Positions 8,855-32,000 of a stretch of 32,000 nt of DNA are shown here, in pieces. The DNA lies in assembly GCF_000023965.1 (NCBI RefSeq), contig NC_013202.1:510001-542000 (forward strand), written 5' to 3'. Numbering within the stretch: position 1 is the first letter of the stretch; every line of letters starts with the position of its first letter. This stretch comes from Halomicrobium mukohataei DSM 12286. GTDB lineage: Archaea; Halobacteriota; Halobacteria; Halobacteriales; Haloarculaceae. A program made the position numbers and the translations under genes. The notes beneath the pieces were generated by a model. It made no database searches. It was given only the letters and a program-made list of their open reading frames with translations, and was not told the origin of the DNA.

Positions 8855-8962
8855 CACGTCCGGCCGTCACTCTTTCGTGAGTGCCACTCTCCGTGTCTCG
8901 AGCACTGGCACACAGCCCCCAGCGTGAACAGTCGCCGCCAGAAACGCCGCTTCTCGCTCGCG

Positions 8963-9184
8963 TTACCGTCCACTCCAGCTGAGCGACGCCAGCGCCGCGC
9001 CCAGCGCGATCGTGGCCACGACGCCCAGAATCTGTAGCACCGACACCACCAGACTCCCGTTGGTCGTCCACGGCGTGCCCGCGACAGTTCCGAGTCCGAT
9101 CAACACGAGCACCACGCCCGTGCCGATTCCGAGCGGTTCCGCGAGGTCGTCGAATCGCTCCGTAAGTGCGTTCATACTCGCCAC
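8963..9184 (-). CDS. Small hypothetical membrane protein (2 TM)
   Basis: 73-aa ORF with two hydrophobic spans (GIGTGVVLVLIGLGTVAG; VVSVLQILGVVATIALGAALASL). The start could be the ATG 9 nt downstream (MNALTERF). Confidence 0.55.
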   Translation of the reverse strand: MASMNALTERFDDLAEPLGIGTGVVLVLIGLGTVAGTPWTTNGSLVVSVLQILGVVATIALGAALASLSWSGR

Positions 9185-9256
9185 CTCGGCACTGACCGTG
9201 GTAAATCTCGTGGTTCTGGCACGCGCCGTCGGATCTCCGACTCGGAGACACCCCTC

Positions 9257-9337
9257 ATACGGACAGTTGTAGTTGCTTATCGGTGAGCGTCGCCACGGGG
9301 TAGACGCTCAGCGCTACATTCCTACAACTGTCCGTAT
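9257..9337. repeat. ~80-nt palindromic element bounded by inverted repeats (MITE-like or structured RNA), copy 1
   Basis: A perfect 16-nt inverted repeat, ATACGGACAGTTGTAG (9257-9272) / CTACAACTGTCCGTAT (9322-9337), encloses an inner 8-bp hairpin (9284-9291 / 9303-9310). It is homologous over its whole length to 31112-31189. Confidence 0.7.
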
Positions 9338-9364
9338 CAGCGTGGTACTCACAGGGAACTGCGA

Positions 9365-9386
9365 CGGGCCGGGAGGGACTTGAACC
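9365..9386 (-). repeat. Exact 22-nt duplicate of the 3' end of tRNA-Lys (orphan tRNA fragment, att-like)
   Basis: CGGGCCGGGAGGGACTTGAACC at 9365-9386 is identical to 9476-9497 (T-loop, 3' T-stem, 3' acceptor strand and discriminator). I could find no matching 5' acceptor strand, so it is not a second tRNA. Confidence 0.8.
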
Positions 9387-9475
9387 GGATCCAGACGTGC
9401 TCGGCTGCTGCGCGCGACTGGTAGGGTCCAAGCCCACGTGGCCGCTTCGCTCTTCACGTCCGTTCGTCGCAGAAG

Positions 9476-9548
<73 letters not shown>

Positions 9549-11486: not shown

Positions 11487-11512
11487 GGACCGATTCCCGA
11501 CCGCTCGTCGGG

Positions 11513-11573
11513 CTCACGCTCGCTCCTACCGACGAGCCGCCAGTTCGTCCCGCAGATCGCTCACGTCCACATC
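11513..11573 (-). repeat. 61-nt duplicate of the hisE 3' end (last 14 codons, stop, and 15 nt of trailer)
   Basis: 11513-11573 aligns with 11655-11715 at 55 of 61 positions without gaps. On the minus strand the duplicate reads DVDVSDLRDELAARR* against DLDVSDLRDELAERR* in hisE. Confidence 0.85.
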
Positions 11574-11620
11574 GCTACCACCTTTTTCCGCTTCGGGTGC
11601 GCTGTGCGCACCACTCGCGC

Positions 11621-11663
11621 AAAAACGTGGGCGAAAAAACGAGCGCTCGCAATGCTCGCGCTC
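11621..11663 (-). terminator. Candidate hisE terminator: hairpin plus two oligo-T tracts
   Basis: On the minus strand, 5 nt after the hisE stop, lies the hairpin GAGCGC-GAGCATTGCGA-GCGCTC (11641-11663). It is followed by T6 (11634-11639) and T5 (11621-11625). Oligo-T is the known archaeal termination signal. Confidence 0.45.
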
Positions 11664-11667
11664 GCTC

Positions 11668-11967
11668 CTACCGCCGCTCGGCCAGTTCGTCCCGCAGATC
11701 GCTCACGTCCAGATCTTTCATCGCCAGCATTACCAGCAGGTGGTAGACGATGTCGGCGCTCTCGTGGGCGATCTCCTCGTGGTCGTCGTCTTTTGCCGCC
11801 AAAATCAGTTCCGTCGTCTCCTCGCCGAGCTTTTCCAGGACGGCGTTCTCGCCTTTCTCGTGAGTGAACAGCGAGGCGGTGTAAGAGTCTTCGGGCAGGT
11901 CGGCCTTGCGCTGCTCGATGACGCTGAACAGTTCGTCGAGAATCTCGTCGGCGTCGGCATCGGTCAT
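11668..11967 (-). CDS. hisE: Phosphoribosyl-ATP pyrophosphatase
   Basis: 99-aa product MTDADADEILDELFSVIEQRKADLPEDSYTASLF...EEIAHESADIVYHLLVML, the MazG-like HisE signature. The ORF-track start at 11973 is a TTG; the ATG at 11967 is preferred. Confidence 0.9.
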   Translation of the reverse strand: MTDADADEILDELFSVIEQRKADLPEDSYTASLFTHEKGENAVLEKLGEETTELILAAKDDDHEEIAHESADIVYHLLVMLAMKDLDVSDLRDELAERR

Positions 11968-12040: not shown

Positions 12041-12124
12041 TATAGTAGCCATTGAAAATCAATGCACACCCGATCGCACGACTGCAGTGCGATCGGTGTG
12101 TAAATCGTTTCAATTGTTACTATA
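12041..12124. repeat. 84-bp imperfect palindrome
   Basis: TATAGTAGCCATTGAAA...ACACCCGATCGCAC gactgca GTGCGATCGGTGTGT...TTTCAATTGTTACTATA. The arms are symmetric around about 12082, and the right arm overlaps the stop of the 59-aa ORF. Confidence 0.8.
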
Positions 12125-14982: not shown

Positions 14983-15147
14983 TCCTCAGCGCGCCAGCGA
15001 TCTCCCTCGTCCGCGGCGGCCAGGTACTTGGACAGCAGCGACGGGAACGTCCGTCAACGGAAGTACCGTAGGCGAATCCTCGGTCCTGTTGATGATCCTC
15101 CGTGGCGACCTGTGGGAATAGGAATAGAATTCACCAATACAAGAAGG

Positions 15148-15154
15148 TTTATTA
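15148..15154 (+). promoter_or_regulatory. Candidate TATA box for the 63-aa island gene
   Basis: TTTATTA is centred about 27 nt upstream of the ATG at 15178. Confidence 0.4.
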
Positions 15155-15177
15155 CATTCAATCATCTGACTTTTATT

Positions 15178-15369
15178 ATGGTGGTTGAGATCTTTGGAGG
15201 GATTGTGCTCTTAATTATCCTCCTGCTGCTCGGTGCAATGAGTGCTTGGGTGTATAAAGACGGAAAGCGTCATAACGTAGATTACCCAGTAATATGGGCT
15301 CTGGCCACGTTCATCGGTGGTATCGGAGGACTAATTCTCTACATTCTTGCTAGGGAAATGTATTATTGA
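15178..15369 (+). CDS. Small membrane protein resembling the PLD-nuclease N-terminal (PLDc_N) family
   Basis: MVVEIFGGIVLLIILLLLGAMSAWVYKDGKRHNVDYPVIWALATFIGGIGGLILYILAREMYY. The layout (TM, VYKDxxxR, W-A-L, second TM, LYIL) matches that family from memory. AT-rich codon usage. The upstream part of the track ORF (15028..) was rejected. Confidence 0.6.
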   Translation: MVVEIFGGIVLLIILLLLGAMSAWVYKDGKRHNVDYPVIWALATFIGGIGGLILYILAREMYY

Positions 15370-15412
15370 ACCGTGTAAATCATACAGGCATTGTATCAAT
15401 GGCTATGGAAAA

Positions 15413-15420
15413 TTTTTATA
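15413..15420 (+). promoter_or_regulatory. Candidate TATA box for the Tat-signal island gene
   Basis: TTTTTATA is centred about 29 nt upstream of the ATG at 15446. Confidence 0.45.
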
Positions 15421-15445
15421 CATGGTGTTAGAATAGAAGATTGCA

Positions 15446-16248
15446 ATGGCGAAAGACAAGAATACACCGTGTGATAGTCGTCGGGGCGTACTCAAAAAAC
15501 AGGATTAGGACTGACAGCACTCTCTGCAGTTCCATCAGGTGTTGTCGCACAGCAACGCAGAAGAAAAGAAAAAGATGCAGAGAAAGTATTTGCCGAAGCT
15601 TTTCGAATTGAGAATAAAACTGATCAAGAAGGAGTATATAAAGATTATTTGAGAGAGAATGGTATATCAATTTCTGGTCAAAAGAAGACATATACAGTTC
15701 AGGGTTCATCAAATGAAATAACAACAGAATATTTAGATAGAAGGGACTTAAATATTGAAATAGGCATTGGAGCATACGGTGGCGATTACACCGATAACGA
15801 TGGTGAATACGCAGTCACACTCACCTGGGATTGGTCAGGCGAAGACTTAGACGACTGGGGAGAACCACCGCGGGATATTGTCGGGCTTCACTGGGTAGGA
15901 GATGACTGGACCGTAGCAAACGCTGAACATAAGAGTACTAATCATACATACTATAAGAAACACTCTGGAAAGCATATAGACTATCAATTTAATGATAGTC
16001 TAGGCGATGGAAGTGATGTTCACTACTTTGTCACCAATTTAGAACCCACTGGTGATTCTGATCCAGATGATCGAGAAGTCGGTGGCGGATACATTCACAC
16101 ATATGATGGTGTCAAAATCGAGAGCGTAACTGCAGGGTTCCCAGCGGGACTTAGCGCCACACTTTCTAACAACAATAAAAAATGGAATACTTCAACCGAC
16201 TCTGATAGTGATGCACTTATTGTGAGTCAAAGTGATGGACACGCCTAG
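15446..16248 (+). pseudogene. Tat-signal secreted protein of unknown family, interrupted by a -1 frame change at an A6 run (pseudogene, homopolymer sequencing error, or recoding)
   Basis: Frame 1 reads MAKDKNTPCDSRRGVLKKQD*. Stepping back 1 nt at A6 (15494-15499) gives ...SRRGVLKK-TGLGLTALSAVPSGVVAQQ..., a complete twin-arginine signal running in frame into track ORF 15649..16248. Confidence 0.7.
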
Positions 16249-16551
16249 TTAATAGACTAAGTCATAATCATATATTTATTATTTTAAGAGTGTGGACTAA
16301 AGAGCCGATGGTAAAAGCCAATCTCACATACCCAATCTAATTGTTGTTTTTCGTCACTGTTGGTTAGTGTGTATAGTTAAATATATTATCACATACTTAC
16401 GAGATGGGGAGATATCTGTAGTTTAGCACCCGGTCATTAAAAAGAAAAATTGACGTTATTGATTCAGTCCGACCATATTAATTGACTGTTCTCACCGCGG
16501 GAACGACCCCCTCCGCAGAGGCAAATAGTGCGGCTACTGAACAGGCACCTA

Positions 16552-21238: not shown

Positions 21239-21265
21239 GAGAAGCGCCACCGCCAGGGCTCGAAC
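21239..21265 (-). repeat. Exact 27-nt duplicate of the tRNA-Asn 3' end plus 6 nt of trailer (orphan fragment, att-like)
   Basis: GAGAAGCGCCACCGCCAGGGCTCGAAC at 21239-21265 is identical to 21385-21411. Confidence 0.85.
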
Positions 21266-21390
21266 AGGTGCAAGACCGTCCTGCTCACTTCGTTGTGCGG
21301 GCTGGGACTCGCGTGCTCGATCCCTGTACGAGGCACGCACTCGGCGCGCTGACGGTTCGCTTTGCTCACCGTGATACGCGCCGAGAGAAG

Positions 21391-21463
21391 CGCCACCGCC
21401 AGGGCTCGAACCTGGGACAACCACGTTAACAGCGTGGTGCTCTACCAACTGAGCTACGGCGGC
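21391..21463 (-). tRNA. tRNA-Asn (anticodon GTT)
   Basis: The reverse complement GCCGCCGTAGCTCAGTTGGTAGAGCACCACGCTGTTAACGTGGTTGTCCCAGGTTCGAGCCCTGGCGGTGGCG folds as a cloverleaf, with anticodon loop CTGTTAA. Confidence 0.95.
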
Positions 21464-28252: not shown

Positions 28253-28404
28253 TACTGCCGGCTGGAAGTCCGTACAGAACTTCGCGGCCCCGTGGTCGCG
28301 AATGTCTCGAAGCAGTGATAGCCGGCAGTGTGAGACGGGTCACTGTCGCCGCGCTCCCGGTCGACCGCGCACGCTCGTCTCCTTCGAGAAGATTCTTGTG
28401 AACC

Positions 28405-28427
28405 GCCTCGGGGTCAAGCCCCGAGGC
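28405..28427. repeat. Subterminal IS hairpin on the tnpB-proximal side (RE)
   Basis: GCCTCGGGG-TCAAG-CCCCGAGGC, a 9-bp stem starting 11 nt beyond the tnpB stop. Confidence 0.8.
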
Positions 28428-28437
28428 TTCCCGTGGT

Positions 28438-29712
28438 TTAATCAGACACACCCATCCGACCATCGGCCTGATAGCCTCGAACGGTCGAATGGGTCACGGT
28501 CGGGGCGTCCACGGCCCCCGATGCCTGCCGTCGCACCTTCCGAACAACGGGAAGGCTGTTGAGAGCAGGCACATTCCAATCGAGTTTCTTCACGCCTTTC
28601 ACGGCGATGTTGACGCTTGCACTACGGTCGCTGTGGTCTTGATGCTCGCAGGACTTGCACTCGAACCGCTTTTTGTTTCGATTCGCTCGCTCTGTATGCC
28701 CACACATCGGACACCGCTGACTCGTATATTCGGGATTGATCCACGCAGTCGGGATACCCTCAAACGACGCCTTGTACGACGTGTAGTATTGGAGGGCGCG
28801 GAACGGGAGGTGGTGCAAGCGTCGGTTCATCCGCGTCCCGTAGTCGATACTGTCGCGCATCTCTTTGAGGTCTTCAAAGACAATGCACGACTTCTCGAAC
28901 TGCTGGCTCCACTCTACGATGTGTCGAGACACCTTGTGGAGGCGGTCGCGGACAAACCGTTCTTCGCGTCCTTCGAGCGTGTCGTGGATGCTGTCCTTCC
29001 CCGCGTTCTGGACGCGCTTTCGCATCGTGAAGTAGCGGTGGCGCTCGAACTTGATTTCGGGGAAGTCAATAACCAACGTGCGCTTGACGCCATCTCCGGA
29101 AAGTGCGGTGAGAGCCACGTTGTCCTCGTTCACGTCCACACCCACGACAGTCCGTGAGTCTTCCTTGTCCCGAACGGTCTGCTCGGTGTTGGTGACGTTG
29201 ACGTGCAACTCGGCGTCGTCGTTGTGGAACAGGGCTTCCGCCGTCCCAATTTTCCACTCGTCGCTCGTGAGCGCGGTCTTGAGAATGTCGAGGTGGGCGT
29301 CACTCCCGGTGAGAAAGCCCTTGACGTGCTTGTACGGCTCCGTGCTGATACGGAACGCCACGCCGCCATCGTCGGTGAGCGACAGGTTGTACCCCTCCTC
29401 ATAGTTCGCACGAAGCGGGTACGCGCCGTCCTTGGTGTGGCTGGGTTGGCTGAAGTCGTCGTACTCGTAGTAGTTCTCCATCGCGCCGAGCGCCTTGGCG
29501 ACGACGCGCTGTGTCGTGTTCTTCACGAGGTCAGCGTCATCAGCCACACAGTCAGGAGTGGTGTCCCAGTCCACGCCTTCTTTCGCGAGGCGGATGGTTT
29601 CGTTGTACACCGAGCGGGCTTCAAGCGTGGCGTCGTACAACAGGCTCTCGTTGTCACTCTGGATGTCGAGTTGGAAGTCTAGCGTCTTGACGAGAGCCTG
29701 TGCCGTGGTCAT
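28438..29712 (-). CDS. tnpB: TnpB (IS605 OrfB-type RNA-guided endonuclease)
   Basis: 424-aa ORF. RuvC triad candidates are VGVDVNEDN, IVFEDLKEM and HSDRSASVNIA. The zinc finger is CPMCGH...CKSCEH. The frame is intact. Confidence 0.95.
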   Translation of the reverse strand: MTTAQALVKTLDFQLDIQSDNESLLYDATLEARSVYNETIRLAKEGVDWDTTPDCVADDADLVKNTTQRVVAKALGAMENYYEYDDFSQPSHTKDGAYPLRANYEEGYNLSLTDDGGVAFRISTEPYKHVKGFLTGSDAHLDILKTALTSDEWKIGTAEALFHNDDAELHVNVTNTEQTVRDKEDSRTVVGVDVNEDNVALTALSGDGVKRTLVIDFPEIKFERHRYFTMRKRVQNAGKDSIHDTLEGREERFVRDRLHKVSRHIVEWSQQFEKSCIVFEDLKEMRDSIDYGTRMNRRLHHLPFRALQYYTSYKASFEGIPTAWINPEYTSQRCPMCGHTERANRNKKRFECKSCEHQDHSDRSASVNIAVKGVKKLDWNVPALNSLPVVRKVRRQASGAVDAPTVTHSTVRGYQADGRMGVSD

Positions 29713-29864
29713 TCTTCGTCTTGTTCGGTGGGTTCTGAAGTTCGGACGACTTTCACATCTGCTCCACGCCAGCGTTTAGGGACGGTGACATGGGCGCTGT
29801 TCCCGAACGGCTTGACTTCACCGTCGAGAACTTCTTCGCCGTCGATCTCAAAGCGATTCGCCAT
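29709..29864 (-). CDS. Small transposon-encoded protein, DUF2080 / AbrB-SpoVT-like (51 aa, below the ORF-track cutoff)
   Basis: My translation is MANRFEIDGEEVLDGEVKPFGNSAHVTVPKRWRGADVKVVRTSEPTEQDEE*. The KPFGNS..V.VPK.W.G..V motif matches my memory of DUF2080. Its stop overlaps the tnpB start (ATGA). Confidence 0.7.
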   Translation of the reverse strand: MANRFEIDGEEVLDGEVKPFGNSAHVTVPKRWRGADVKVVRTSEPTEQDEE

Positions 29865-29870
29865 ACCTGC

Positions 29871-29889
29871 GTATATCCTTTGGATATAC
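29871..29889. promoter_or_regulatory. Palindromic double TATA-like element between the divergent IS genes (bidirectional promoter and/or operator)
   Basis: GTATATCC-TTT-GGATATAC is a perfect 8-bp inverted repeat. It lies 7 nt from the small-ORF start (29864) and 29 nt from the tnpA ATG (29918). Confidence 0.5.
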
Positions 29890-29917
29890 TTAACTGTGCT
29901 GGTGGAGTAGGTTCGAT

Positions 29918-30367
29918 ATGGGTGAGAAGCGGTCGAATCACACGGTGTACAACGTCAACTACCATTTCGTGTGGTGTCCGAAGTCAAGCAAAGCGAAGCT
30001 TTGCGTACCTCGCGGGATCGAAGATCCCGCTCAGTATCGCTACACGATTCTCGAACCAATCGAGGATTCGCTGGAAGCGAGTTTCCGCGATGTGTGCGAC
30101 GAGTACGGTTACGAGATACTATCGCTACATATTTCGCCCGATCACGTACACTTGTTCCTATCAGCTCACCCGAAGTACGGGCCGAGCGAGATTGTACGGA
30201 CAATCAAGAGCATCACGGCACGGGAGATGTGGGAACAGCACGAACCGTTCTTGGAGGAGTACCTGTGGGGCGGTGGATTTTGGGAGGAATCGTACTACGT
30301 GGGGACGGCAGGCGATGTTTCGACCGACACGATTGAGCAGTATATCGAGCGAACGGAACACGTTTAG
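29918..30367 (+). CDS. tnpA: IS200/IS605 TnpA (Y1 HUH transposase) carrying a 17-aa in-frame insertion
   Basis: 149 aa with YHFVWCPK...YRYTIL, the HUH motif DHVHLFL and the catalytic-Tyr region ESYYVGTAG. The conserved CPKYR block is split by SSKAKLCVPRGIEDPAQ. Confidence 0.9.
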   Translation: MGEKRSNHTVYNVNYHFVWCPKSSKAKLCVPRGIEDPAQYRYTILEPIEDSLEASFRDVCDEYGYEILSLHISPDHVHLFLSAHPKYGPSEIVRTIKSITAREMWEQHEPFLEEYLWGGGFWEESYYVGTAGDVSTDTIEQYIERTEHV

Positions 30368-30386
30368 CGGAGTGTACGGCCTTCAC

Positions 30387-30408
30387 CCTCGGGGTCAAGC
30401 CCCGAGGC
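30387..30408. repeat. Subterminal IS hairpin on the tnpA-proximal side (LE)
   Basis: CCTCGGGG-TCAAG-CCCCGAGG plus C, identical to 28406-28427, starting 20 nt beyond the tnpA stop. Confidence 0.8.
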
Positions 30409-30453
30409 ACTCGGCCTGCTCCGCCTGTAGACTGCCGGTGTAATCGAGACGCT

Positions 30454-30996: not shown

Positions 30997-31111
30997 CAGC
31001 ACACACTACGTCCCCGACCGGCATATAGATGTTCTTAGGTTGATGATTTGTCGGTGGATTTGCGGTCCCGATACCGGCCGCTGTTGACGCCGGAGACAGA
31101 GAGCCCGTATC

Positions 31112-31189
31112 ATACGGACCGTTGTAGCGATGTACTGGTCGTCTATCCCGTGGCGACGATCGCCGGTACGCGACGACAACGTTCCGTAT
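31112..31189. repeat. ~80-nt palindromic element bounded by inverted repeats, copy 2
   Basis: ATACGGACCGTTGTAG (31112-31127) ... CGACAACGTTCCGTAT (31174-31189), with an inner hairpin at 31136-31143 / 31155-31162. It aligns end to end with the reverse complement of 9257-9337. Confidence 0.7.
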
Positions 31190-31600
31190 CAGCCGTCAGT
31201 TTCGACGCGCTCCTCGCCGTCGAAGTGCGCGGAGTTGTCCCGGGGTTCGTAGCCGAGCGCCTCTTTGGCCCGCTCCAGGGAGTAGTACTTGCGATCGTTG
31301 TCGGAGACACCGACAGGCTCGCTACGCTCGCCTGTCGAGCCCTCGCTCGCTTCGCTCGCGAGGATGCCGTAGACGATATCGGTACCGGCTGGGATCACGT
31401 CGGGTCGGCGACGCGCTCCTCGCCGTCGAAGTGCGCCGAGTTGTCCTGGGGATCGTAGCCCAGAACCTCCTTCGCGCGCTCGATGGAGTAGTACTTGCGA
31501 TCGTTGTCGGAGACACCGACAGGCTCGCTACGCTCGCCTGTCGAGCCCTCGCTCGCTTCGCTCGCGAGGATGCCGTAGACGATATCGGTACCGGCTGGGA
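31189..31600 (-). repeat. Two tandem 206-bp units, each duplicating the 3' end of the adjacent epimerase gene
   Basis: Units 31189-31394 and 31395-31600 each begin (on the plus strand) with a stop-codon complement TCA. They repeat the gene tail found at 31601 to about 31745 and end in the same ~100 nt. Confidence 0.9.
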
Positions 31601-32000
31601 TCACGTCGGGTCGGCGACGCGCTCCTCGCCGTCGAAGTGCGCCGAGTTGTCCTGGGGTTCGTAGCCCAGAACCTCCTTCGCGCGCTCGATGGAGTAGTAC
31701 TTGCGATCGTTGTCGGAGATGCCGTAGACGATCTCGAAGTCGTAGTCGGCGAGGAGGGCTCGCTCGTGGATATGAGCGCAGTCGCGGTAGGAGAGCCACA
31801 TCGCCTGGCCGCGCTCGTAGTCGATCGGCGGATGGCCCTTCGTGAGGTTGCCGATGCGGACGTTGCACACGTCGATCCCGTACTCGTCGTGGTAGTACCG
31901 GCCGATGATCTCTCCGGTGGCCTTCGAGACGCCGTAGAGGTTCCCCGGGCGGGGGAACTCGGAGCCGTCGAGTCGGAAGTCGTCGTGGGTGCGGTACAGG
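31601..32000 (-). CDS. NAD-dependent epimerase/dehydratase family protein (C-terminal part; the 5' end is outside the window)
   Basis: The frame is open to the window edge and reads ...PGNLYGVSKATGEIIGRYYHDEYGIDVCNVRIGN... (the SDR YxxxK motif), ending ...NSAHFDGEERVADPT*. Confidence 0.85.
   Translation of the reverse strand, partial: LYRTHDDFRLDGSEFPRPGNLYGVSKATGEIIGRYYHDEYGIDVCNVRIGNLTKGHPPIDYERGQAMWLSYRDCAHIHERALLADYDFEIVYGISDNDRKYYSIERAKEVLGYEPQDNSAHFDGEERVADPT

Follow-up and report, generated by a model that had tools for sequence, protein, structure and literature searches.

A small hairpin with a conserved apex recurs beside gene ends in a 32,000-nt stretch of the Halomicrobium mukohataei DSM 12286 genome (contig NC_013202.1, positions 510,001 to 542,000; GC content 63.5%), referred to here as the window. 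The explanation that we favor, with a probability of roughly 0.6, is that these hairpins belong to a family of minute palindromic DNA elements that has become dispersed among haloarchaea, mainly in genomes of the Haloarculaceae. The unit would be a single hairpin or, more often, two hairpins totalling 50–63 nt, and its apex, stem-GA-N-C-(GNA)-G-N'-GA-stem, is predicted to form a 2-bp mini-helix and triloop on a tandem G.A/A.G mismatch. Conserved genes with filled and with empty sites show that the elements are insertions. They are also shown to persist in two settings. One is the position directly past a stop codon, the GA strand then being sense; the other is in frame within proteins, to which the sense strand contributes short peptides of hydrophilic or acidic character.

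Six hairpins in the window match on the plus strand as a perfect stem of 5–8 bp around the core TCGCNNNGCTC, which confirms the positions and sequences of the strict instances listed in a first-pass annotation of this DNA. Four of them are independent and the other two are not, as they sit in a tandem repeat. The hairpins and the gene upstream of the first one are as follows.

11640–11664, minus strand: hairpin CGAGCGC-GAGCATTGCGA-GCGCTCG with a 7-bp stem, 3 nt past the hisE stop codon and then followed by six T residues (11634–11639).
11668–11967, minus strand: hisE, encoding phosphoribosyl-ATP pyrophosphohydrolase (Pfam PF01503), with the exact protein also encoded on Halomicrobium record CP045142.1.
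21352–21372 (structure 21343–21382), minus strand: hairpin ACGGT-GAGCAAAGCGA-ACCGT with a 5-bp stem.
31311–31337 and 31517–31543, matched on the plus strand: hairpins with 8-bp stems in the repeat of the azf 3' end.
31341–31363 and 31547–31569, matched on the plus strand: hairpins with 6-bp stems in the same repeat.

Read on the strand of the upstream gene, the core of all six is GAGC-NNN-GCGA, and all six lie at loci with a duplicated gene end. The hisE hairpin is identical in Halomicrobium katesii, a close relative with 99% protein identity at the locus of the NOG1 GTPase gene, which neighbors these loci. The tRNA-Asn hairpin is nested within a longer GGCGCG/GCGCGCC helix and begins 8 nt past the tRNA. 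Genes for tRNA-Lys, tRNA-Asn and tRNA-Met adjoin hairpin loci in the window, and azf (NAD-dependent glucose-6-phosphate dehydrogenase) is present as its 3' part. Two further structures had been counted as instances in the first-pass annotation. One of these lies 3' of tRNA-Lys (9436–9459) and the other is given below.

8943–8964, minus strand: weak look-alike hairpin overlapping the stop codon of a 73-aa open reading frame (ORF), not counted here as a member.

Neither structure matches the core: each has only one of its GA dinucleotides, and they are distant, degenerate relatives at best.

Bare cores on both strands of the window numbered 12 compared to 4.2 expected, and 2 of 100 shuffles reached 12. 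As this roughly 3-fold over-representation is not extreme, it would be compatible with a composition artefact of GC-rich, GAGCGA-like sequence. However, 6 of the 12 cores were flanked by stems of at least 5 bp, as opposed to 0.00 in 300 dinucleotide-preserving shuffles, a control that the first-pass annotation had proposed. Covariation, strand bias and intergenic location, described below, also speak against an artefact, which we consider already refuted. The three cores in mirror orientation in the window were without a stem. A relaxed scan of the window gave no additional good copy and none 3' of plus-strand genes; most gene ends in the window are without the module.

Structural features of the hairpin were derived from 80 loci around the NOG1 gene in 80 Halobacteriales species, about 1 Mb in total. 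This sample yielded 78 hairpin copies, to which all counts out of 78 refer. The scan called for an outer stem of at least 5 bp, a 2 × 2 internal loop, two inner pairs and a loop of 3–5 nt. GA/GA with a triloop was by far the top class with 78 matches, compared to at most 25, and mostly fewer than 15, for the other non-complementary combinations, which fits the first-pass reading of the flanking GA/GA. The generalized motif is stem-GA-N-C-NNN-G-N'-GA-stem. The inner-pair strings were GC (31), CC (23), AC (17) and GT (5), and in a scan that did not require N and N' to pair they were Watson-Crick complementary in 51 of 56 cases, with G-C, C-G and A-T types all represented. The stem starts seen most often were CGAG (16/78) and GCGG (15/78), the feet being otherwise variable. 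Stems that differ completely, as had been claimed, are the rule within the window, but across genomes particular stems recur, such as CGAGCGGG...CCCGCGAG.

Alignment in register of 37 distinct hairpins showed GA..GA to be invariant, with 87% of the paired cells occupied by complementary residues as compared to 53% after shuffling and 30–43% when the partner strand was slid. Outer positions on which the scan placed no selection were paired in 17–28 of the 37 hairpins. By RNA folding, the inner 2 bp and triloop formed in all 37, and the GA strand was on average 2.5 kcal/mol more stable than its complement, with 36 of the 37 hairpins following this trend. Covariation was also observed in the stem subfamily CGAGCGGG-GARC-NNN-GYGA-CCCGCGAG, one recurrent stem version that we collected from metagenomes, where 123 of 126 copies show covariation of the purine/pyrimidine positions. 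The orthologous copies in Haloarcula retain the stem and GA..GA while the triloop drifts. Stem mismatches of the G.U and A.C types, which bear on selection at the RNA or DNA level, numbered 3 and 1, too few to decide between the two. No module in the window or in five related loci matched an Rfam 15 covariance model at E values up to 1, and a scan with a terminator consensus did not call the modules.

Tandem sheared G.A pairs are classically stable in the context C-GA-G, and GNA mini-hairpins of the d(GCGAAGC) type with tandem sheared G.A (5'-CGAG-3' context) are unusually stable in both DNA and RNA. The apex resembles these motifs in its C-GNA-G triloop, present in 46 of the 78 copies (ATT, ACC and AGC occur among the others), and in its GA/GA placed in the C-GA-G context, with a C-G closing pair in 57 of the 78. 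The resemblance is a physical one, as these are structural motifs and not genetic elements. The hairpin could instead be an RNA protein-binding motif, a kink-loop (K-loop)-like 5'-stem-GA-loop-GA-stem for L7Ae or a similar protein that would mark mRNA 3' untranslated regions, with spread and duplication being secondary. The order of the K-loop architecture, stem-GA-7 nt-GA-stem, matches the hairpin, and the invariance of GA..GA in the 37 distinct hairpins and their predominant C-GA-G context would also fit. However, the 7 nt between the GA pairs are two covarying Watson-Crick pairs plus a triloop; G.A/A.G pairs beside a 3-nt bulge or an open loop, as in K-turns and K-loops, are not found, and as the 3-nt bulge is absent a kink is not expected. 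The motif is found in coding regions as well. We consider this explanation improbable.

Evidence for insertion comes from copies inside genes. Among the 126 metagenome copies of the subfamily, 37 (~29%) lie in ORFs, 33 of them in the sense orientation and mostly in ORFs of 250–1300 codons. The reading frame continues through all 33 sense copies, whereas the four antisense copies lie in implausible arginine-rich ORFs. All three sense frames are used, giving the peptides SSGE[RQ]SDPRD, RAGSEATRE and GERGAQRPAS. The frequency of these copies is at odds with a specific targeting of gene ends, which had been suggested in the first-pass annotation. Another hairpin lies 3–14 nt upstream of 86 of 122 subfamily copies; 47 of these upstream hairpins have a GA..GA apex and 27 a plain triloop. 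The two-hairpin unit so formed is 50–63 nt in length with a GAAnnG-like linker. Among orthologues of the LysZ/ArgB kinase with flanks more than 85% identical, a site after DVASLV is either empty or filled by an insertion of ~20 aa, and another set of orthologues has an insertion after APPMAG. At the DNA level the APPMAG insertion is an exact 57-nt double hairpin, the same length as the insertions in the azf pseudo-copies described below, and the DVASLV insertion is 63 nt. The three insertion sites resolved in this way (azf and the two LysZ sites) have no conserved target tetranucleotide in common. Metagenome contig Ga0207733_100110 (L155) contains two copies of the element 78 nt apart (2824–2928) in the C-terminal part of an 862-aa ORF. 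The flanking coding sequence is repeated too (DGGSEVERERDLDSSGE[QR]SDPRD occurs twice), and this arrangement is a tandem duplication of the element plus its flank inside a gene.

Halomicrobium, Halosimplex, Halorientalis and Haloarcula have 1–2 hairpins per 10 kb and Natronomonas slightly fewer, and the homologous loci in families other than the Haloarculaceae have practically none. This distribution agrees with the suggestion of a specific, lineage-restricted structure. Similar arrays are present on plasmids of Natrialba, Halomarina and Halobaculum. An unannotated 1-kb spacer of Natrialba magadii plasmid pNMAG01 (183.77–183.95 kb; L082 1490–1670) holds a module array in which CGAGCGGG-GAACAACGTGA-CCCGCGAG alternates with GAACGAAGTGA; the family therefore extends to Natrialbaceae replicons. 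The stem subfamily was found in at least 120 metagenome stretches, identical 27-nt copies being present at unrelated loci in many genera, and its 27-nt pattern was absent from viral contigs.

Placement and orientation were examined in the NOG1-anchored sample. Fifty-nine of the 78 copies are intergenic and sense with respect to the 3' end of the upstream neighbor, 35 in convergent and 24 in co-directional spacers. Antisense copies in co-directional spacers numbered 0 as compared to these 24, and the corresponding numbers for the metagenome subfamily were 24 sense and 6 antisense. A stop codon is found no more than 5 nt before the start of 13 of the 59 intergenic sense copies. The remaining copies are mostly explained by missed small genes or tRNAs, such as a 41-aa ORF at one locus (L039) whose stop codon overlaps the stem. 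Copies are present on both strands at four loci, each 3' of a gene on its own strand. The first-pass observation that the hairpin faces the same way as the upstream gene was supported in the window, in the NOG1 loci and, for the majority of copies, in the metagenome subfamily. The simplest explanation for the strict sense orientation is that the GA-capped RNA hairpin is asymmetric, or that the sense-encoded peptides are harmless, or both.

Hairpins located right 3' of stop codons in sense orientation could also be lineage-specific terminators or 3'-processing signals that evolved in place and are immobile, with the apex serving as a signal for a protein or RNA polymerase. The six T residues after the hisE copy, the conservation of the hisE arrangement across genera, and the Haloarcula orthologues in which stem and GA..GA are kept as the triloop drifts are consistent with this possibility. 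On the other hand, just 10 of the 78 copies are followed by a T run, most gene ends are without a hairpin, up to seven copies are arrayed within 240–400 nt, and copies are found in long ORFs distant from gene ends. The filled or empty LysZ sites and the identical 27-nt copies at unrelated loci in many genera are likewise hard to reconcile with evolution in place, and we consider it unlikely that this explanation is correct. Termination in haloarchaea and other archaea is U-tract dependent (PMC7237163, PMC8716108), relying on U-tracts and aCPSF1 rather than hairpins (PMC8716108). Because a run of at least four T residues lies downstream in 10 of the 78 copies only, the hairpins as a class are not hairpin plus U-tract terminators, and a role as a general terminator, one of the original suggestions, is not sustained. 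The hisE copy, with its T6 tract, may be such a terminator individually. A mobile terminator-like element, SPRITE, has been described in Streptococcus pneumoniae (PMC10969869). The haloarchaeal hairpins resemble SPRITE and hairpin plus U-tract terminators in lying 3' of genes in gene orientation and, at hisE, in the T6 that follows, and differ from hairpin plus U-tract terminators in that 68 of the 78 copies are without a T run.

Duplicated gene ends are a second feature of the hairpin loci. Direct repeats of at least 30 nt within 300 nt were present in 18 of 43 hairpin regions (42%) but in only 15 of 497 control spacers (3%), so that hairpin regions are ~14 times likelier than other spacers to hold local direct or tandem duplications. 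The proposed association of hairpins with gene-end duplication thus holds statistically, but it is not obligatory, as the remaining 25 of the 43 regions are repeat-free. Spacers with multiple copies are common, and the copies within them share one orientation. Halosimplex sp. TS25 has seven copies within 240 nt 3' of pdxT, Halorientalis regularis has six copies in three 163-nt tandem units 3' of hisE, and close Haloarcula species have differing tandem duplications of one two-hairpin unit on the 3' side of NOG1. In four Halosimplex loci (L013, L027, L033 and L018) the first hairpin 3' of pdxT is in frame and gives a C-terminal extension (ESEVANAVSDLD and variants), in which pairing is retained as the peptide changes.

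The four duplicated gene ends reported for the window, those of hisE, tRNA-Asn, tRNA-Lys and azf, are real. At hisE, 11512–11573 and 11654–11715 are 90% identical over 62 nt, and the spacer contains the following features in addition to the hairpin listed above.

11596–11612, minus strand: second hairpin, GGTGCGC-ACA-GCGCACC, located between a T5 run and AAAAAGGTGG.
11526–11570, minus strand: displaced hisE end consisting of the last 14 codons and stop, with a GTG start (MDVSDLRDELAARR*).
11496–11525, minus strand: degenerate copy of the post-stop hairpin, 3' of the displaced hisE end (repeat family D20).

The order of elements is stop codon, hairpin, T5-6, CGCCCACG-T5, second hairpin, AAAAAGGTGG, and the last 13–14 hisE codons with their stop. 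The same arrangement is present in HArc-gm2, three species of Halorientalis, Haloarcula regularis, Salinibaculum salinum and a Haloarculaceae metagenome-assembled genome, with homologous spacer motifs and covarying hairpin stems across genera; the position of the second hairpin is conserved and its stems covary as well. At least six genera have the displaced end, and its boundary is the same in each. The duplications lie at 11496–11667 in the window, L003 1255–1410, L039 3886–4390, L035 3950–4125, L017 1620–1790, L043 5770–5900, L011 and L041, with a structured spacer of ~100 nt. Many species of Haloarcula have no insert here, and their hisE lies only ~10 nt from the convergent gene. On average the displaced copy is identical to the hisE end of its own genome at 35.75 of 39 positions and to that of other genomes at ~23 of 39, and 19 of 26 differences between the copies are at third codon positions. 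This pattern fits an old duplication, its two copies kept alike by gene conversion while purifying selection acted on the live one. AAAGGTGG and a start codon precede the displaced end in most genomes, giving a possible 14-codon mini-ORF. A reading of AAAAAGGTGG as the Shine-Dalgarno site of this mini-ORF was not upheld, as the motif elsewhere follows stop codons of the opposite strand as CCACCTTTTT and the start codon is missing in L017; it may be, at least as likely as a ribosome-binding site, the T-run terminator of the convergent gene. Third-position bias was also rejected as proof that the copy is translated, as purifying selection on the live copy alone gives a similar bias.

The tRNA loci contain displaced 3' ends of the following kind.

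21239–21265, minus strand: exact 27-nt copy of the tRNA-Asn 3' end including 5 nt of trailer (original at 21385–21411).
9359–9472, minus strand: structured unit following tRNA-Lys, with terminal inverted repeats CTGCGACG/CGTCGCAG and the degenerate module at 9436–9459.
9364–9387, minus strand: displaced tRNA-Lys 3' fragment of ~23 nt (compare 9475–9498).

At tRNA-Lys, H. katesii (96–98% identical to the window) has an extra unit of ~125 nt with two more module variants, and the form in the window looks like the product of a deletion between two GGGCTTGAACCCT-like segments. The tRNA-Lys trailer (9359–9472; L002 7105–7345) folds into a unit that CTGCGACG/CGTCGCAG close, with a long helix inside it in which a GGGCTTGGACC arm pairs, including G.U wobbles, with the T-arm-like GGTTCAAGTCC of the displaced tRNA fragment, and the unit may be a decayed tandem tRNA copy. 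A comparison of the spacer and tRNA-Lys region to a phage collection gave no match, and its plasmid matches were due to a separate palindromic repeat of ~90 nt only. This repeat (ATACGGAC.GTTGTAG ... CGTCGCCACGGG.TAGACG ... CTACAAC.GTCCGTAT) is present at 9254–9340 on the plus strand and 31105–31195 on the minus strand, immediately past the displaced fragment of tRNA-Lys and past azf end copy 3, respectively. A Halomicrobium mukohataei plasmid carries 11 copies and a plasmid of Halomicrobium sp. LC1Hm carries one. It resembles a MITE (miniature inverted-repeat transposable element) and had no Rfam match.

At azf, the duplicated end itself carries the element.

31203–31724, minus strand: tandem repeat of the azf 3' end, 2.5 copies of 206 nt.
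31512–31568, minus strand: 57-nt double-hairpin insertion in azf 3'-end pseudo-copy 2, CCTCGC-GAGCGAAGCGA-GCGAGG plus CGACAGGC-GAGCGTAGCGA-GCCTGTCG.
31306–31362, minus strand: this 57-nt double hairpin again, inserted in azf 3'-end pseudo-copy 3.

The live gene end (stop codon 31601–31603), 200 nt away, is insertion-free, while the insertion in pseudo-copy 2 is in frame (LASEASEGSTGERSEPVGV) as judged against the intact gene at 31709–31732. None of the azf homologues retrieved has an insertion at VYGI|SDNDRK, which excludes the insertion as an ancestral feature of the protein. Copy 2 is chimeric, its hairpin part being that of copy 3 and its coding part nearly that of the live gene; it probably arose when the live end underwent unequal crossing-over with a displaced end that was older.

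A displaced gene or tRNA 3' end at all four loci would also be expected if the hairpin were recognized by a site-specific system for recombination or integration aimed at gene 3' ends, the duplicates then being att-like repeats of small cassettes that bring a replacement end. The shared boundary of the displaced hisE end in at least six genera and the 19 of 26 third-position differences, expected if both ends were once live, could be taken in the same sense, but the third-position bias would likewise be expected if purifying selection acted on the live copy only and gene conversion took place now and then. Moreover, the intervening DNA at the four loci is only 17–125 nt long and is unrelated between loci except for the hairpin, there is no integrase near any of them, and insertions within ORFs are without a flanking repeat. 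With repeat-free hairpin regions also in the majority, we judge this possibility to be even less likely than termination signals that evolved in place. The earlier proposal of a small mobile system is supported by filled and empty sites in conserved genes, but neither a recombinase nor a consistent att site was found.

As an element family, the hairpins have counterparts in several known systems. Repetitive extragenic palindromic (REP) sequences and bacterial interspersed mosaic elements (BIMEs), which are mobilized by RAYT Y1 transposases in bacteria, are likewise short GC-rich imperfect palindromes that are abundant, extragenic, mostly 3' of genes and often clustered; they are also linked with local duplications and thought to stabilize upstream mRNA. 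Unlike REP/BIME, the conserved part here is the apex GA-NC-NNN-GN-GA instead of a 5' GTAG/CGTC tag, a tetranucleotide that was not found at the variable feet of the 78 copies. Clustered haloarchaeal copies face one way whereas REP/BIME copies alternate, and the archaeal host, the orientation that strictly follows the gene and the in-frame copies inside genes are further differences. Rickettsia palindromic elements (RPEs) are selfish-looking palindromes found in frame in unrelated conserved genes, to which they add a short peptide, and also in non-coding DNA. The haloarchaeal copies behave in this manner, with 33 sense copies in ORFs and insertions in LysZ and azf that are absent from orthologues. 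They are not members of the RPE family, as the units are 50–63 nt (57–63 nt for the resolved insertions) compared to ~100–150 bp, the host lineage and sequences are unrelated, and the haloarchaeal unit has two GA-capped hairpins and a strong post-stop bias. Double-hairpin elements (DHEs), or GC clusters, of fungal mitochondria consist of two adjacent short hairpins that move as a unit, insert into intergenic and coding DNA and are insertion-polymorphic between relatives; their sequences, host and genome type are unrelated to those considered here. Neither terminal inverted repeats nor target-site duplications of the MITE type were found, the unit being two separate hairpins and not one terminal-repeat pair.

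The IS200/IS605-derived PATEs of haloarchaea are also hairpin-based and without target-site duplication. An IS200/IS605-family unit is present in the window (28290–30450), comprising TnpB (28438–29712, minus strand) with a small DUF2080 ORF upstream of it, and a Y1 transposase in divergent orientation (29918–30367, plus strand); a sub-threshold Rfam match to sot2652 (28452–28574) overlies the TnpB 3' end. The Y1_Tnp gene belongs to this unit together with TnpB, and no modules flank it; in the window, no RAYT gene was identified. The unit's end hairpin (GCCTCGGGG-CTTGA-CCCCGAGGC) is unrelated to the module, and therefore no mobilizing enzyme can be named. The hairpin family was not found in the open-access literature, and recent surveys of archaeal REPs and prokaryotic MITEs do not extend to such elements in haloarchaea. 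The family is apparently undescribed so far, although an earlier description may exist.

Several observations weigh against a family of dispersed elements. The four independent copies in the window have only the 11-nt apex in common, which could alternatively result from convergent selection on a functional hairpin. The azf, LysZ-1 and LysZ-2 sites show no clear target-site duplication, the elements could not be linked to any transposase, recombinase or target motif, and mobility is deduced from presence/absence patterns only. Runs of at least four T residues within 20 nt are downstream of 10 and upstream of 8 of the 78 copies. The NOG1-anchored copies are often orthologous and correspond to perhaps 8–10 independent spacers, gene calls in these loci were crude (based on GC content at third codon positions), and the metagenome set, while independent of the NOG1 loci, was picked for one stem subfamily.

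Allowing for these points, we still favor palindromic elements over the alternatives and propose that their effects would arise as follows. When transcribed, the GA strand is predicted to fold into an unusually stable capped hairpin, and this RNA hairpin could plausibly act as a barrier at, or a stabilizer of, transcript 3' ends. Together with a downstream T run as at hisE, it would form part of a terminator. As DNA, the palindromes would promote slippage, unequal crossing-over and illegitimate joins that generate duplicated gene ends, which are best seen as by-products of palindrome-rich DNA. A stronger version would hold that the hairpins are an undescribed class of mobile double-hairpin elements of ~57 nt, capped by tandem G.A mismatches, that insert in the transcribed orientation only, add short acidic peptides to conserved enzymes, mark the 3' ends of mRNAs and give rise to duplications and replacements of gene and tRNA 3' ends. 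We regard this version as tentative and somewhat short of an even chance. Under it, the strict adherence to the sense orientation would suggest transcription-coupled, single-strand (HUH/Y1-type) or RNA-templated insertion that is new to archaea.

Comparison to relatives also revealed differences elsewhere in the window. Part of Halomicrobium record CP045142.1 (GCA_009217585.1) is identical to the window. Positions 14999–16551 comprise ~1.5 kb here as compared to 43 nt in H. katesii DSM 19301, with two or three unannotated ORFs inside, and in the same comparison a further short stretch has been replaced at 12047–12122.

If confirmed, the family would be an archaeal counterpart of the bacterial REP and Rickettsia RPE elements. 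It would constitute a recurrent source of peptide insertions, such that some 'halophilic insertion peptides' may be derived from the elements, as well as a driver of local duplication of gene and tRNA ends. The hairpins would also be a likely determinant of mRNA 3' ends in organisms in which termination and decay signals are poorly known. The stem-GA-NC-NNN-GN-GA-stem pattern is a compact, searchable signature for genome annotation, and the element would provide a defined substrate for identifying the enzyme that mobilizes it.

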